Made by a program: the position numbers and the translations under genes. From a virus (Duplodnaviria; Heunggongvirae; Uroviricota; Caudoviricetes), in IMG/VR virus record IMGVR_UViG_2667528065_000010, positions 1 to 7,146 of that record: 7,146 bases of DNA, one strand, 5' to 3'. Every line of letters begins with the position of its first letter. Position 1 is the stretch's first letter. Shown here one piece after another: positions 1 through 7,146 of this stretch. The notes below the pieces were generated by a model. That model was not told the DNA's origin. It saw nothing but the letters and a program-made list of their open reading frames with translations, and did no database searches.

Positions 1-216
1 CACAACATCCGAGGGCGGAGGCATCGTCCGCTGGCCCACAGAAGTCCGGAAAGTCATGGAAGGTCGTTGTTGGGAGGAGGTACAAATTCTCTCATGCAAA
101 AAATACGTAAAATCGATAATAGCTGGAAATAATTCAATACATGCACTCTCGAAAGTGCATCAGCCAACAAGCAGAACGTTATTGCATACAACGTTTCTGC
201 GGCATAATCCCAATGA

Positions 217-340
217 TTACTCCCTGACAGGGTTCGTAGGCCACTCAATATCAGGTGCAGTTGATGTATCAACACGGTTCAGCAGCATCCGATACTTTTT
301 CCAGGCTTCCAGCAACGGGGTTTCTTCCTCCGTTGCATAT
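217..340 (-). pseudogene. tfa: 3' remnant of a tail fibre assembly gene (Tfa family C-terminus), lacking start and N-terminal domain
   Basis: Minus-strand translation of 340..220 is [39 protein letters not shown], then TAA at 219-217. This matches the C-terminal motif of E. coli prophage Tfa proteins as I recall it (…[26 protein letters not shown]…). An in-frame TGA lies at 343-341, there is no ATG upstream of the motif, and the preceding sequence is an unrelated membrane-protein ORF. Confidence 0.65.
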
Positions 341-355
341 ACAGCTCACCTTTTT

Positions 356-655
356 TCACCCACGATTAACCAACAGCCAGACCAGCAGACACGCCACCAC
401 CGGCACAGCAAAATCCATCAGGCTTGCCACATCCCATGCACGTGTATCAAAACCGCCCCACCACGGCATATTCATTCGCTTGCCATGCCCGAACATTTCG
501 ATCCAGCGATATTCTGCCTGGGTGTGTTCACGCGCAATGAAGAACGTACAACCGGCTATCGCCCCGTAAGCCCAGTTCCCGGTAAAAAGACCAATCAGTA
601 GCTGCGCAGCCACAGCACAAAGCGCATGAAGGAAAGGTGTTATATCCATTTTCAT
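356..655 (-). CDS. Hypothetical small membrane protein (~100 aa, 2-3 predicted TM segments)
   Basis: ORF 356..664 in the track begins at a TTG; the likely real start is ATG at 655 (MKMDITPF…) or 649. Hydrophobic stretches ITPFLHALCAVAAQLLIGLF and FAVPVVACLLVWLLV. Codon usage resembles the neighbouring genes. No family recognised. Confidence 0.5.
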   Translation of the reverse strand: MKMDITPFLHALCAVAAQLLIGLFTGNWAYGAIAGCTFFIAREHTQAEYRWIEMFGHGKRMNMPWWGGFDTRAWDVASLMDFAVPVVACLLVWLLVNRG

Positions 656-662
656 CCTACCC

Positions 663-685
663 AATAAAACGGGGCGCTCGGCCCC
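663..685 (-). terminator. Candidate rho-independent terminator after the chaperone-domain fibre gene
   Basis: Minus-strand ggggc-cgagc-gcccc (5-bp GC stem) followed by gttttatt, directly after the TAA at 692-694. The stem is short, so confidence is modest. Confidence 0.4.
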
Positions 686-691
686 TTAATA

Positions 692-1736
692 TTATTTAGA
701 CGCAAGCGCCGCCTCAATTGCAGATAATCTTTGTCTTAATTCTGCGTTTTCTTCTTCCAGTGCTGTTATTCTGTCGTCTGACTCTCTGGCTACCTGAACA
801 AGCAAGCCAGTAACACCAGAATAATCTACTGTGTAATAACGTTCACCTTCTTCACCTTCCGATCCGCTCGCACCGTCCTGATATTTCATTGCGGAACCTA
901 CAACTTCTGGGATTGCTTCCAGAGCTTCCTGTGCAATGACACCAGCATAGGGCATACCGTTTTCTTTAAGCGTGTATGTATAGCCGTTCATTTTACGGAT
1001 GCGGTCGGTTGCATTATCGATCACCTGAATGTTGTCTTTCAGATCCCGGTCGGAATGCTGGTTAAATGCGGTGGCATGACATGCACCATTAACGCTTAAC
1101 ATATAGGTGTTATCGGTATTTTTCTGCGCATAGAACATATAAGCGCCACAAGTCACGACACCGACTTCATAAACAACAGGACGGCTGGAGTTGCCCCACA
1201 ATTGAGCGAGTAACACCAGCATAAGCGGTTCCCTGTGTGTTTAATGTCATGGTTGACCCATGATTGGCATATTTGATCTGTAATGTGTCGGTGTAATCAA
1301 ATTTAATAAGCGCGTTACTTCCACGCTTGCTGTATGACATAAGGCAGTTACCCATTTTGAGGTATCCGCTGTCACCGGGAAAAATCATCGTACCGCCATA
1401 AAGGTTGGTAAAGTCCCAGCAAATGTTTGTCCCGTTATCGTTCAGGTTAAGGCGCGCCATTGCGTTACCTGGACTGTCTATCCATTTTTTGAGGTATAGT
1501 TCGCAATACGCATCCTCAACACCTGCCGTCCTGTGAGTTGAGCGGAGTTTTCTCCCAAATATAGCTCCGCTAGTTGGCAATACCTGCTGATACCATGAAG
1601 CAGACCAGTCACCAACGATTTCATCTTTGCTGTCTACATATAATTTTGTTGCGTAGCTTCCTTGATCGTTTTTTAATTTGCTAACGTCGGATTTTAGCGT
1701 TTTGATGTCATCAGGAATTACTGTCGATGTAGCCAT
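692..1736 (-). pseudogene. Short tail-fibre/tip protein with C-terminal intramolecular-chaperone (peptidase S74-like) domain, interrupted by a frameshift
   Basis: Two overlapping minus ORFs in different frames (1167..1736 and 692..1222). The upstream part begins at ATG 1736 with AGGAAG as RBS. The downstream part carries HSDRDLKDNIQVI…GYTYTLKENG…GVIAQEALEAIPEVV…ALEEENAELRQRLSAIEAALASK. The SDxxxKxNI motif followed by a C-terminal coiled coil is, as I recall it, the signature of the self-cleaving chaperone domain of phage tail fibres and endosialidases. Removing one G from the minus-strand G4 run (plus C4 at 1194-1197) gives a continuous ~347-aa protein (…GVTRSIVG-NSSRPVVYEV…). Confidence 0.6.
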
Positions 1737-1745
1737 TTTTCTTCC

Positions 1746-2027
1746 TCACATCCAGCCACGAAGTTGATGCTCAACAGCAACCACGTATTCATCGAATAAT
1801 GACGATATTTGCGAATCATTAATGATGCGCACGTTTACAAAATATCCGTCTTCCTTAACACATACCGGTTCGCCATCTTCAGTCAGTTCTCCGGTTTCTT
1901 TGTACACGTTACCTATCACGTCGATAAGAATATCATCCTGCATCGACTCGTCATCATAATAGCCAATACTCTCCATAAAGGCCGAAAAGTCGGCCCTGTC
2001 TTCAAATTTGAGTGTTAAATCTTTCAT
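1746..2027 (-). CDS. Hypothetical acidic 93-aa protein of unknown function
   Basis: ATG at 2027 with a strong SD (GGGGGAG, plus 2036-2042) 8 nt upstream. It starts 23 nt after the stf stop, and its TGA sits 9 nt before the next gene's ATG, so it is translationally coupled on both sides. Rich in Asp/Glu. I recognise no family. Confidence 0.65.
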   Translation of the reverse strand: MKDLTLKFEDRADFSAFMESIGYYDDESMQDDILIDVIGNVYKETGELTEDGEPVCVKEDGYFVNVRIINDSQISSLFDEYVVAVEHQLRGWM

Positions 2028-2050
2028 TAGATTGACTCCCCCATTTGTGC

Positions 2051-4456
2051 CTAAGTTAATTCTTTATGCCAAATGCGTAAATTTTTCACATGACCGAACA
2101 GGTGTCTGTTGCCACTGGATGATTGTCCACCGATATTAATATTACCGGCAGTATAACGTTGCAATGTATGCAGAGACGGGGAGCTGCCACCTAAAATTCC
2201 ATCAACAACAACCTGCAACTGTTTATCTTCTGTAAACTTAAAGCCAGTAACAAATTTCCTTTTCTCTCTATTCCCATATGCTTTATATTCTGTTTTTGTT
2301 CCTTTGCCATTGGTGATAATTAGCCTTTTACCACGAGTGGTAAAACCAAAATACATATAACTTTCATCAGAAACTTCAGTCGTCGCCCCTGTAATTGAGA
2401 TATTAAGCAAACGCGCAGAGCCTTCTAAATTAGGCATTTCAGAATCCCAATTAACATTAACTTCCATGAGAACACTAACTGGTGGAGTTGCCCAATTGAA
2501 AGGTATAGGTATGATTACCTGGTCACTTGCTCTCGTGGCACCGACCTCTGTTGTGATGATAAAAGATGACGCGTTTAGTCCCTTTTCGAATTGAGGGGTT
2601 GTTAACATTAATTTATCGCCAGACTTGATTGATCGTTGATGTGCTCCAAACTCAAAACGCCCATACATATTTTTTGCTTCTGGTGATTTGTAGGTAAACT
2701 CAACACGAATCCATCCATTAGACTCTCTGAATATGTTATAAGTTGCCGCCTCACCTCCAGAATAACTCAACATATCGCCAGTCTCGCAATCAATATATGC
2801 GCCAGCGGTCAGTGTGTTACTTGAGCCATCGTCGTTAACATATGATATTCTTGGACGCAACGTGATAATACCATCCCCACTTACTTTTTTAACTCTGCAG
2901 GATAAAGTAACTGATTCATTTGCCGAAACTGAAATAACCCTGGTATATCCAGTAGAAATTAATGTCGCCCTTTCAGTTGTGGATGTTTCTTTAACGCCAA
3001 ACAAACCATAACTGAAACCATACTCATCAACTCCCGTGGTAATAGTTAAGTTAGCAGTGTCATAGTTCCACGATACTGGTGTATTCGTATAAGAAAAAGT
3101 ATTCGTTCTCTGACCTTCAATGAGCAGACCATCTTTTTCAAAACGTGGTTCATTTATCGCTGATTCAGCAAAACACCCAGACTTATCTATATACGTTGCA
3201 GTTGACGCCCTGGTAAATGAAACAACCTTTTCAGACGGCAATGCAATAACATCGTCACCAACTGTGATGCTCTTATATCCAGGAGCAAACCCGGTAATCA
3301 TATCCAGTGAATCGTTAAACGGTATCCACACCTCAGGTAACGGCTGTAAGACATATTTATACGGCTCCGCAGCCTGGCTGGCGTACTCTCTGGCTGCATC
3401 TTCGCTTGCTTTAGCTGCCGTCTGGCTTGCTGCCGATGCTTTCGCTGAGTTCGCAGCCGCTGTTTCGCTCGCCTTTGCGTTGGTTTCACTGGTTTTTGCT
3501 GCTTTTTGAGCGGTTAGCTGATGCAGTGGCAGAAGCAGCCGCCGCACTTGCAGAACCAGCTGCAGCACTCTCGCTTTCGGCTGCTGCAGCCTGACTACTT
3601 TTCGCCGCAGTTTCGCTGGCTTTGGCATTCGTTTCGCTGGTCTTCGCTGCTGTCTGGCTGGACTTTGCGTTAGTTTCACTCGTCTTCGCAGCTTTCTGGC
3701 TGTTAGCCGCAGCAGTTGCTGATCCGGCTGCTGAAGTCGCAGAACCGGCCGCCGCACTCTCGCTTTCAGCTGCTGCATCCTGACTGCTTTTCGCCGCAGT
3801 TTCACTGGCTTTCGCATTCGTTTCGCTGGTTTTCGCTGCCGTCTGGCTGGACTTCGCGTTGGTTTCGCTCGTCTTTGCGGCTGTCTCACTGTTTTTCGCG
3901 TTGGTTTCTGATTTTTTGGCTGCAGTCGCGGGGAGGGGGCCGATGCAGTCTGTGAGGCCGCTGCCGCCTGTGCGCTGTTAGCTGCGTTCGTTTCTGAGGT
4001 TTTCGCCGCGTTCTTCGATGATGCCGCTGCTGTTTCGGATTTCTTTGCCGCCGCTGCGCTCTGAGAGGCGGCTTCAGCGTTGCGTGCCGCTTCTTCCACC
4101 ATTTCCTCAAAACGACGCAATGCCTCCGGCATGACATCATCTTCCGTCATGGCACCGAGAAAATCATTCAGCGTCCCCGGCTTAGAATCTTCATACACGG
4201 TGATGGTCCCGGCATGTGAAGGCGGAAAACCTTCAACCAGCAGGATAACGCTGTACTGGCCATACTCAACATCCATGCTGTAACGCCCGGCTTCATCCGG
4301 ATCTTCAGAGGCCACCGTGTTCACCAGATTTTCAGAGGCCACCGTGTTCACCAGTACCGTGGTGCTGTTACGCTTTGCCTTCAGTTGAATAGTGCAGTTC
4401 TGTATTGGTTTTCCCGCACCATCTTTCAGCACACCTGAGATTTTTACTGCTGCCAT
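2051..4456 (-). CDS. stf: Side tail fibre protein: lambda Stf-like N-terminus, Ala/Ser/Thr-rich repeat shaft, non-lambda C-terminal domain (possibly lectin/LamG-like)
   Basis: Likely start is ATG at 4456-4454 (MAAVKISGVLKDG…), with GGAG 5 nt upstream; the ORF-track start at 4462 is a GTG two codons further up. The N-terminal ~170 aa closely match my recollection of lambda Stf (MAVKISGVLKDG…NCTIQLKA…EAGRYSMDVEYGQYSVIL…FPPSHAGTITVYEDS…). The middle has AAKTSETNAKA-type repeats. The C-terminal ~480 aa are beta-rich and end …RHLFGHVKNLRIWHKELT. The ORF is continuous, but about 140 internal codons are in an alternative frame (see findings). Confidence 0.82.
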   Translation of the reverse strand: MAAVKISGVLKDGAGKPIQNCTIQLKAKRNSTTVLVNTVASENLVNTVASEDPDEAGRYSMDVEYGQYSVILLVEGFPPSHAGTITVYEDSKPGTLNDFLGAMTEDDVMPEALRRFEEMVEEAARNAEAASQSAAAAKKSETAAASSKNAAKTSETNAANSAQAAAASQTASAPSPRLQPKNQKPTRKTVRQPQRRAKPTRSPARRQRKPAKRMRKPVKLRRKAVRMQQLKARVRRPVLRLQQPDQQLLRLTARKLRRRVKLTQSPARQQRRPAKRMPKPAKLRRKVVRLQQPKARVLQLVLQVRRLLLPLHQLTAQKAAKTSETNAKASETAAANSAKASAASQTAAKASEDAAREYASQAAEPYKYVLQPLPEVWIPFNDSLDMITGFAPGYKSITVGDDVIALPSEKVVSFTRASTATYIDKSGCFAESAINEPRFEKDGLLIEGQRTNTFSYTNTPVSWNYDTANLTITTGVDEYGFSYGLFGVKETSTTERATLISTGYTRVISVSANESVTLSCRVKKVSGDGIITLRPRISYVNDDGSSNTLTAGAYIDCETGDMLSYSGGEAATYNIFRESNGWIRVEFTYKSPEAKNMYGRFEFGAHQRSIKSGDKLMLTTPQFEKGLNASSFIITTEVGATRASDQVIIPIPFNWATPPVSVLMEVNVNWDSEMPNLEGSARLLNISITGATTEVSDESYMYFGFTTRGKRLIITNGKGTKTEYKAYGNREKRKFVTGFKFTEDKQLQVVVDGILGGSSPSLHTLQRYTAGNINIGGQSSSGNRHLFGHVKNLRIWHKELT
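3474..3930 (-). repeat. 189-bp-period tandem repeats (about 2.4 copies, ~90% identical) encoding the Ala/Ser/Thr-rich fibre shaft
   Basis: Plus-strand landmarks recur at a 189-nt offset: gcagaacc at 3550 and 3739; gttagc at 3513 and 3702. One sub-segment shows a 190-nt offset (tttgcgtt at 3474 and 3664), which reveals a 1-nt indel between copies. Confidence 0.85.
4301..4354 (-). repeat. 27-bp tandem duplication (26/27 identical) inside the stf N-terminal domain, in frame
   Basis: 4301-4327 versus 4328-4354 differ at one base. It encodes LVNTVASEN-LVNTVASED, whereas lambda Stf as I recall it has a single VNTVGSE at this point. Confidence 0.85.
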
Positions 4457-4466
4457 ATCCACTCCA

Positions 4467-4494
4467 CAAAAAAGCCCGCCTGAACCGGCGGGCT
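4467..4494 (-). terminator. Rho-independent terminator downstream of lom
   Basis: Minus-strand agcccgcc-ggttca-ggcgggct (8-bp GC-rich stem; plus 4473-4494) followed by tttttt (plus A-run 4467-4472). It sits just upstream of the stf RBS (GGAG) and start codon. Confidence 0.65.
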
Positions 4495-4520
4495 GTCATA
4501 ACACTGTGTTACCTGGCTAA

Positions 4521-5144
4521 TCAGAACTTATAACCGACACCCACGATGAAACCGTCAGTGCGCCAGTCACCACTGCCGGAGCCTTCATAAGCAATATCAA
4601 TGGCCACGGATTCGGTCGGGTTAAACTGCACGCCAGCTCCCCACGCCAGAGACGTGTTGCTGTGGCGACCGTCATCACTTCCGGTCAGCACATCGTGCGT
4701 TTTCCCCTTGTTGTCAGTTACGCGGAGGTAATCCCCGGAAAAAGTCGAAACACGGCTGTAAGCCATACCCGAAACACGGCTGTAAGCCATACCCGCCATC
4801 GCATACGCGCTGAACCATTCATTCACGCGCACAGACGGCCCCGCCATCACGCTGAACCAGCGGTTACGCACGGAATCTTTATGCCAGCGGGTATCGCTGT
4901 AACGGGTCAGCTGACGATTCTTGTATCCTGCATAACTGAATGACGTCACCAGCCCCAGCGTGTCCGTAAATTCATAACGGTATTTCACGTTAATGCCCTT
5001 CAGGTCATCACTGCCTGGCATATCAGTATGGGTCTGAAGATACCCGGCGCTTAGTGTGGACTGATGCTCTGCTGCGCTCGCTGGCGTACCAGCGGCAACC
5101 AGCCAGACTACTGCGGACAGAATAACAGCACATAATTTACGCAT
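4521..5144 (-). CDS. lom: Lom family outer-membrane protein (Ail/OmpX/PagC-like 8-strand beta-barrel), 207 aa
   Basis: ATG at 5144 preceded by GAGAGG. N-terminal signal peptide MRKLCAVILSAVVWLVAAGTPASA-AE. C-terminus …VAIDIAYEGSGSGDWRTDGFIVGVGYKF, as I recall for lambda Lom, ending in the aromatic residue typical of OM beta-barrels. Position immediately after J as in lambda. Confidence 0.92.
   Translation of the reverse strand: MRKLCAVILSAVVWLVAAGTPASAAEHQSTLSAGYLQTHTDMPGSDDLKGINVKYRYEFTDTLGLVTSFSYAGYKNRQLTRYSDTRWHKDSVRNRWFSVMAGPSVRVNEWFSAYAMAGMAYSRVSGMAYSRVSTFSGDYLRVTDNKGKTHDVLTGSDDGRHSNTSLAWGAGVQFNPTESVAIDIAYEGSGSGDWRTDGFIVGVGYKF
4747..4794 (-). repeat. Perfect 24-bp tandem duplication (2 x gaaacacggctgtaagccataccc) inside lom, in frame
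   Basis: Read directly: 4747-4770 is identical to 4771-4794. It duplicates eight residues (…MAGMAYSRVSGMAYSRVSTFSG…). Confidence 0.9.
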
Positions 5145-5165
5145 AATTACCTCTCGCTTTTCTGC

Positions 5166-5192
5166 AATAAAAAAGGCGTCATTTCTGACGCC
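5166..5192 (-). terminator. Rho-independent terminator downstream of J
   Basis: Minus-strand sequence ggcgtca-gaaa-tgacgcc (7-bp perfect stem, 4-nt loop; plus 5175-5192) followed directly by tttttatt (plus A-run 5166-5174). It lies between the J stop (5212) and the lom RBS. Confidence 0.6.
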
Positions 5193-5211
5193 CGTATTGG
5201 GGTTATAAAAT

Positions 5212-7146
5212 TCAGCTGATACTGATGCCTGCAGTGGCTTTCTTCATCACAACAACCAGCAAATCGCTGATACTTGCTGTGGGATACCAACCATTTACCC
5301 ACCATGCTGATACAGAAAACTCCAGTGTCATTACACCACTGCCTGCAGGCATATCAATAACACCCGTGTAAATCAGAGTATTATCCAGAGCCGTTCGGTT
5401 ATAAATTTCAGCCCCGTTTTTCTTCACTATCAGGCGGCATGACGAATAAGTATCGCTATTCTCCCGCTCATGTCTGGCACCGCAGAAAGCCACCGCTGGA
5501 ATAACAATTTGCCGGTCAAACGACTGATCGTCATAAACCCTGACGGTAATAGTCCCTGATGGCCACCGCTCCGGTGCACGGGAGTCCCGGGGGAAAGCTT
5601 TGCCCACTGTTTTAACGAGATCGCCTTCAATCTGGTTCGCGGACAGTTTTCCCAGAACCCGACAGTTCTCGTTAATCGTGACATTATTGAGCGTCCCGGA
5701 GTTCGCATTCACGTTACCGCTGATATCGGCATTTTTCGCCGTCAGCCGCCCGTCCGGTGTCAGGGAAAATACCGGAGGATTGCCGCCACTGGTAATGGTG
5801 GGAGCCGTCAGATACTTCAGGAACACTTCGTTCATGAATATCTGGTTGCCCTGCGCCACAAACATCGGCGTTTCATTCCCGTTTGCCGGGTCAATAAACG
5901 CGATACGGTTAGCGGCAACCAGGAACTGGCTCAGTTTGCCTTCCTCCGTATCCTCCATACTAAGGCCAAGCCCCGCGACATAATGCCTGCCGTCTTCGGT
6001 CTGCTCAATTTTGACGCCCCACATGGCATTCCATTTATCGTTGGCGTCCTTCCACTCTTTCGAAAACTCCTCCAGTTTGCTGGCGTTATCCTCCTCCAGT
6101 TTGCTGGCGTTATCCTCCGTCAGCTCGACTTTTTCCAGCAGCTCCTTGCCGAGATGGGATTCGGTTATCTGGCCTTTGAAAAAATCCAGGTAACCTTCCG
6201 CATCATCGCTCGGCTGACCAACAGCCTCCACGAATGCCGATTTGCCAACGGTGTTCACACTGCGGATATAAAAGTAATAATCATGGCCCGGTTTGATATT
6301 GATACTGGCAGCTATCCAGTACAGCGCCGTACCAAGATAGCGGGCTGTGGTCTCAACCTGCCTGATATCGGTAATCCGCTTTTCCGAGAACCAGAACTCA
6401 AACTGTACCGTCGGATCATAAACCGCAAGATGCGGCGTGGCAGTTATCTGAAAATAGCCCGGCGTCAGCTCAATCCGCGACGGCGCTGCCGGTGCGGCAA
6501 TCCGGAACGATACCGATGCCGGATCGCCCTGCTGTCCCCACGCATTTACCGCCCGGACCGTCAGCGTGTAACGCCCCAGCGCCAGTTGCCTGAAGCGGTA
6601 TGTGGTTTCCGTCGTCCTGGCCGTGCTGACCAGCCGCTCACTGCCGTCATCCGCTGCCACGGTCAGGCGAAGCATAAAGCTCACCCCCTTCACCACCTTC
6701 GGCGTATCCCAGCGCGCCAGCACCTGATACTCCCCGCTGTCTGAGGTGACTTCGGCAGTCAGGTGCTGCACCGCAGGCGGCGTGACACCATTCACCGTGC
6801 CGCTCTGGTCGCCGTCAAAGTGCGCCCCGTTATCCACGATGGCCTCTTTTTCCGGCACATGCTGCACGGCGGTGATGGCATACGTGCCGTCGTCGTTCTC
6901 ACGGATACTCACGCAGCGGAACAGGCGCTGGCGCAGCGTCGGCAGCTTCAGCCCCCATACGCTGTATTCAGCAACACCGTCAGGAACACGGCTCACTTTT
7001 ACCTTCACGCCGTCGGTGACGGACTGAACCTCCACGCTGACCGGATTGCCACTTCCGTCAACCAGACTTATCAGCGTGGTACCGGAGGATGGCAGCGTGA
7101 TTTCACGGTCGAGCGTCAGCGTCCGGGTCTGGCTGTTCACCGCCAG
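5212..7146 (-). CDS. J: Host specificity / tail tip fibre protein J, C-terminal ~644 codons; 5' end lies beyond the right window edge
   Basis: Minus-strand frame is open from the window edge to the TGA at 5212-5214. The ORF-track start at 7140 is only an internal GTG. Translation contains fibronectin-III-like segments ([27 protein letters not shown]) and ends ...[32 protein letters not shown], matching my recollection of the lambda J C-terminus (receptor-binding region). Gene order J-lom-stf agrees with lambda. Confidence 0.93.
6067..6114 (-). repeat. Perfect 24-bp tandem duplication (2 x ctcctccagtttgctggcgttatc) inside J, in frame
   Basis: Read directly: 6067-6090 is identical to 6091-6114. 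In the J frame it duplicates eight residues (…[24 protein letters not shown]…). Confidence 0.9.

Follow-up and report, generated by a model that had tools for sequence, protein, structure and literature searches.

We analysed a stretch of 7146 nt, here called the window, which corresponds to the host-range end of a lambdoid prophage. Its genes all lie on the minus strand in the order J, lom, stf, orf93, fibre and orf97, and the chromosomal sitDCBA operon starts just past the window. Its reverse complement is identical to positions 1-7146 of locus L003 and makes up the end of AOQI01000137.1, a low-quality draft contig of E. coli (15,862 nt; assembly GCA_000397365.1). A literature search on the assembly accession found nothing relevant. 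The genes of the window, with a terminator-like element, are located as follows.

5212..7140, minus strand: J
4521..5144, minus strand: lom
2051..4462, minus strand: stf homologue, which stays open despite an out-of-frame stretch
1746..2027, minus strand: orf93 (phrog_1361), a conserved ORF of 93 aa that separates stf from the fibre gene; phage Tritos has it too
692..1736, minus strand: tail-fibre gene over its whole length; its intact relatives encode 346 aa, the window 347 codons once base 1208 is left out, and in the record it stands in two frames
671..685, minus strand: GC hairpin and then a T run, resembling a terminator, directly past the fibre stop codon
356..664, minus strand: orf97, a conserved small ORF (phrog_1443) downstream of the fibre gene, hydrophobic, 97 aa in relatives, also present in Tritos

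The products of the phrog_1361 and phrog_1443 ORFs may be fibre accessory proteins.

The fibre gene is split in the deposited sequence. ORF calling on the minus strand gave two overlapping ORFs in different frames, whose native and out-of-frame parts were assigned as listed here.

1167..1736, minus strand: ORF A, 189 aa; the N-terminal 176 residues are native and are followed by 13 out-of-frame residues (RSIVGQLQPSCCL)
692..1222, minus strand: ORF B, 176 aa; residues 1-4 (MLVL) are out of frame and residues 5-176 are native, taking in the last part of the fibre body together with the chaperone domain

On the 346-position profile phrog_4563 ('tail fiber protein'), ORF A covered positions 1-181 (E 1.9e-101) and ORF B positions 177-346 (E 5.4e-111). 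Because the two ORFs match successive stretches of this profile, they are consecutive parts of one fibre-like protein, as a preliminary description of the window had proposed. An intact relative matched the same profile from end to end (1-346 of 346, E 9.9e-221). The proposal that a one-base change would restore an ORF of about 347 aa was also borne out, since deletion of a base at any point of the overlap restored an ORF of 347 codons. When the deleted base was that at 1208, the resulting 347-aa protein was identical to WP_001306186.1 except for VVTC in place of VDG, a difference that comes from a cluster of changes at 1150-1157.

The underlying gene is a common, ordinary one with an existing annotation, the second tail-fibre gene of lambdoid coliphages. 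The preliminary description had suggested a search for uninterrupted homologues, and these proved abundant in complete E. coli genomes, in isolated phages and on at least 1000 contigs. Among 5426 complete E. coli genomes, megablast found the region in 977, with a coverage of at least 80% in 516, and the gene there bears the annotation 'tail fiber domain-containing protein' as one protein of 346 aa, WP_001306186.1. In a collection of 15 billion proteins, the exact intact 346-aa protein occurred on at least 1000 contigs and belonged to a 90%-identity cluster of 2132 members. Isolated phages that carry the fibre as one ORF include Tritos and PhiR63_1 (both at 99.7% identity), 2G7b, HannyBb and others; the fibre module is intact in the four named phages at 98-99.7% protein identity. 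The order stf, orf93, fibre and orf97 in Tritos, where the fibre gene is TRITO_21, is that of the window. The N-terminal 176 residues had no match in Pfam and were found in only 12 phage records, each time within a full-length gene. Compared with WP_001306186.1 and the phrog_4563 members of these phages, the window gene thus has the same sequence, apart from base 1208 and the VVTC/VDG difference, and the same neighbours, but it is broken by one extra base and altered by a cluster of +3 nt, both unique to AOQI01000137.1.

Two further observations concern these homologues. In phage PhiR47_1 (PV340566, locus L006 1501-2541) the gene has an in-frame stop at codon 295, in the chaperone region past the S74 core, and its annotation consists of two CDS; the stop may be a natural nonsense variant. 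A second profile, phrog_19752 (207 positions, no assigned function), matched residues 1-205 of the intact protein (E 2.3e-145). Its coverage of only the N-terminal part may mean that some phage records hold N-terminal-only or split versions; none was present among the 12 phage records examined.

The intramolecular-chaperone domain that had been proposed for the gene was found at its C-terminal end. ORF B matched the Pfam family PF13884, Peptidase_S74 ('chaperone of endosialidase'), over residues 57-108 with an E-value of 2.8e-14 and a score of 53.6 bits, the gathering cut-off of the family being 22 bits.

899..1054, minus strand: residues 57-108 of ORF B, matched by Pfam Peptidase_S74; the chaperone region runs on to a coiled-coil-like C-terminal end at 695
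1037..1054, minus strand: S-D-R-D-L-K motif, with a predicted scissile Ser227 (1054..1052) and, five residues on, Lys232 (1039..1037), in the numbering of the intact protein

In the T5 protein pb1, the scissile residue is Ser1264 and is accompanied by Lys1269, and cleavage needs correct trimer formation (PMC4690869). The Ser-x4-Lys spacing of Ser227 and Lys232 in SDRDLK is the same as that of Ser1264 and Lys1269. A sequence search of the PDB gave one weak match, to the long tail fibre of phage S16 (6F45, E 0.0013), which covered the chaperone motif only and left the fibre body uncovered. Judged by sequence, the C-terminal 120 or so residues most likely belong with K1F endosialidase and T5 pb1 in the intramolecular-chaperone family. 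The protein shares with K1F endosialidase, T5 pb1 and the S16 fibre the Peptidase_S74 domain, its C-terminal position and a helical tail after it, but its body, about 226 residues without a Pfam match, is far shorter. The intact gene would most likely encode a second, short fibre, downstream of stf. By analogy with the endosialidase and T5 family, the intact protein is expected to trimerise under the guidance of its C-terminal Peptidase_S74 chaperone, and self-cleavage before Ser227 of SDRDLK is then predicted to leave a mature fibre of about 226 residues. The domain is fused to the fibre C-terminus in all intact relatives, whereas in the deposited window it and the N-terminal 176 residues are encoded in different frames; this separation is most likely an artefact.

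Alignment with the intact genes located the lesion. The fibre gene measures 1045 nt in the window and 1041 nt in its intact form. In alignments to loci L001 and L004, the overlap zone differed in length at a single point, window position 1208, where the gene strand of the window has one C more. The context, ACT[C]GCT, is no homopolymer, and its flanking bases permit only one placement of the insertion. A second cluster of changes, overlooked in the preliminary description, lies 50 nt downstream of this break.

1208..1208, minus strand: surplus C of the gene strand, a G when read on the plus strand, which breaks the frame and which no intact relative has
1194..1197, minus strand: G4 run (C4 on the plus strand), the same in the intact genes and therefore not the lesion
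1150..1157, minus strand: second lesion cluster, with insertions of CG (1157-1156) and C (1152) and a G-to-T change at 1150; net +3 nt, changing VDG to VVTC

The preliminary description had placed the break elsewhere, at the G4/C4 run of 1194-1197, and had read both frames as native protein up to that run. On that account the split would come from a classic homopolymer-length sequencing error, a surplus G in the run. Deleting one G from the run does bring the 347-codon ORF back, and the run is the only homopolymer of at least four bases in the overlap zone. However, GGGG stands unchanged in the intact homologues, the only length difference of the zone being the one at 1208, outside any homopolymer. 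The junction obtained at the run, ...GVTRSIVG|NSSRPVV..., also holds four out-of-frame residues, RSIV, that occur in no homologue. Across the junction the native protein reads ...GTAYAGVT-AQLW-GNSSRPVV..., with ...GVSTLLWGNSSRPVV... in a more distant homologue, and all homologues have (A/T)(Q/L)LWGNSS. The alignment to the intact genes rules out the G4-run model as we see it, and we consider a homopolymer-length error at this place very improbable.

The split version of the gene was found in one draft contig only. An index of 153 billion gene positions recorded each half-protein for AOQI01000137.1 alone, and neither half-protein was found in the collection of 15 billion proteins. Among 449 complete E. 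coli genomes that hold a 111-nt segment of the window, none had the window version at 99% identity or more; the best identity was 95.5%, which is that of the 107-nt intact version. As a test for a fixed pseudogene, the lesion was sought in independent sequences of the lineage and was found in none of them (0 of the 449 complete genomes, one contig in the gene-position index). The best 13 full-length complete genomes, which come from varied hosts and countries, all span 7060 nt where the window has 7146, and the excess of 86 nt equals the summed length of the 11 insertions that the window carries relative to NZ_CP098187.

The lesions extend over the whole contig. When AOQI01000137.1 was compared with NZ_CP098187 over 14.4 kb, it showed 19 insertions and 1 deletion, and isolated substitutions were few. 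Perfect tandem duplication accounts for eight of the insertions, with lengths of 24, 24, 27, 4, 25, 26, 7 and 31 nt. The insertions of 1-2 nt are mostly of C, and several stand beside clustered substitutions (for example, AAA to CCC plus an inserted CC at 3932-3938). Three of the duplications lie in the window, where Tandem Repeats Finder confirmed them (100%, 100% and 91% matches), and genes of the chromosome outside the prophage were also hit, sitB being truncated and bluF split into three gene calls.

6095-6118, in J: tandem duplication of 24 nt, EDNASKLE twice
4772-4795, in lom: tandem duplication of 24 nt, GMAYSRVS twice
4303-4329, in stf: tandem duplication of 27 nt, a LVNTVASE-type repeat
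9028-9031 (sitB), 13945-14400 (bluF), 11312 and 11645-11687, all in locus L003: chromosomal lesions, comprising a CGGT duplication, duplications of 25, 26, 7 and 31 nt, and insertions of 1-2 nt

The duplications in J, lom and stf (24, 24 and 27 nt) are absent from all of the closest complete genomes and are in all likelihood assembly artefacts of the same draft. The stf homologue carries two frame breaks specific to AOQI01000137.1, +2 at 3932-3933 (with AAA to CCC at 3936-3938) and +1 at 3510. Over the roughly 141 codons from one break to the other, the reading is out of frame but meets no stop, and Ala/Ser-rich repeats become Arg/Lys/Pro/Gln-rich. A G-to-T change at 2053, also specific to this contig, creates a premature TAG by which the last 8 codons are lost. 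The preliminary description had counted the fibre break as the third homopolymer-associated break within about 3 kb; the nearby breaks in stf are indeed there, but only some of the small insertions adjoin the same base. The same type of error appears at 17-21 and 169-170 of the window, where C, CC and T are inserted and one base is substituted in a non-coding or tfa-remnant stretch adjoining sitD.

Insertions are many and deletions limited to one, perfect short duplications are frequent and point divergence is almost nil, and this pattern is not that of natural divergence between close strains. We conclude from the comparative evidence that the frameshift is very probably a consensus or assembly error of the draft AOQI01000137.1, to which we give a probability of about 0.9. 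The fibre gene would then appear split because the deposited consensus holds a spurious extra C at 1208, the +3 nt cluster at 1150-1157 would be equally spurious, and the true strain would read ACTGCT at 1208 and GTTGATGGT at 1150-1157, its fibre gene most likely being intact. A point that counts against an artefact is that an insertion away from a homopolymer, as at 1208, is not the classic error type of 454 or Ion Torrent sequencing.

The preliminary description had left the choice between sequencing error and decay of the fibre module. The error side is supported by lesions specific to one contig and by intact homologues, but decay is not, the module being intact in the closest genomes and in phages. 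A real, strain-specific frameshift would make the gene a young pseudogene in a decaying host-range module, with a 189-aa product that lacks the chaperone domain. Decay is common among prophage tail-fibre genes, related genomes have a tfa remnant downstream, the related inducible phage PhiR47_1 has its in-frame stop in the same gene, and the extra base does stand in the deposited record. Yet the lesion is confined to one draft contig, and the 19 insertions and 1 deletion form a non-biological spectrum of perfect 4-31-nt tandem duplications and mostly-C insertions of 1-2 nt with few isolated substitutions. Moreover, the chromosomal genes sitB and bluF carry the same lesions, and such a density in a 5-Mb genome would amount to thousands of disrupted genes. 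We regard a real frameshift as unlikely. The module itself is not decaying: decay was rejected because the closest complete genome has stf as one open frame of 799 codons without interruption, and because the isolated phage Tritos contains the whole module. It is more doubtful still that all the lesions are real, in which case the strain of GCA_000397365.1 would bear an extraordinary load of short perfect tandem duplications and mostly-C insertions, produced by a mutator of the duplication or insertion type, and its fibre gene, sitB, bluF, stf, lom and J would all be broken.

The split could also be functional if programmed +1 ribosomal frameshifting or transcriptional slippage joined the two ORFs. 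The two frames do overlap, over 77 nt that include the G4 run. However, a slippery X XXY YYZ heptamer, which the preliminary description had advised looking for, was absent from window positions 1167-1250, and inspection of the same positions showed no recognisable +1 frameshift site. The frame-A tail beyond 1208 is not conserved, and the two-frame arrangement occurred in none of the homologues examined, the gene being a single ORF in all 449 genomes, the 12 phage records and the contigs, of which there are at least 1000. Programmed frameshifting was rejected because the overlap has no slippery heptamer and no homologue has two frames, and we hold it to be extremely improbable.

A consensus or assembly error at 1208 being the preferred reading, the significance of the break lies in quality control only. 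Neither the fibre break nor the breaks near it should be taken as signs of prophage decay, pseudogenisation or recoding, and other findings from AOQI01000137.1 or GCA_000397365.1 deserve equal suspicion. The arrangement resembles that of stf in lambda PaPa (orf401/orf314), where a single-base frame change likewise turns the side-fibre gene of a lambdoid phage into two adjacent ORFs. The lambda PaPa frameshift is said, in work attributed to Hendrix and Duda in 1992, to be a verified laboratory-strain mutation with a known phenotype. In contrast, the break described here has one error-rich draft contig behind it and concerns another gene, the second fibre gene downstream of stf.

A different kind of split was seen in the annotation of stf. 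RefSeq divides this gene into three pieces, two of them flagged incomplete, in NZ_CP098187 (locus L004 11643-14042) and in the complete genome of locus L001 (3375-5774). At both places stf is an uninterrupted ORF of 799 codons, and the three pieces look like an annotation artefact of model-based gene calling on a repeat-rich fibre.
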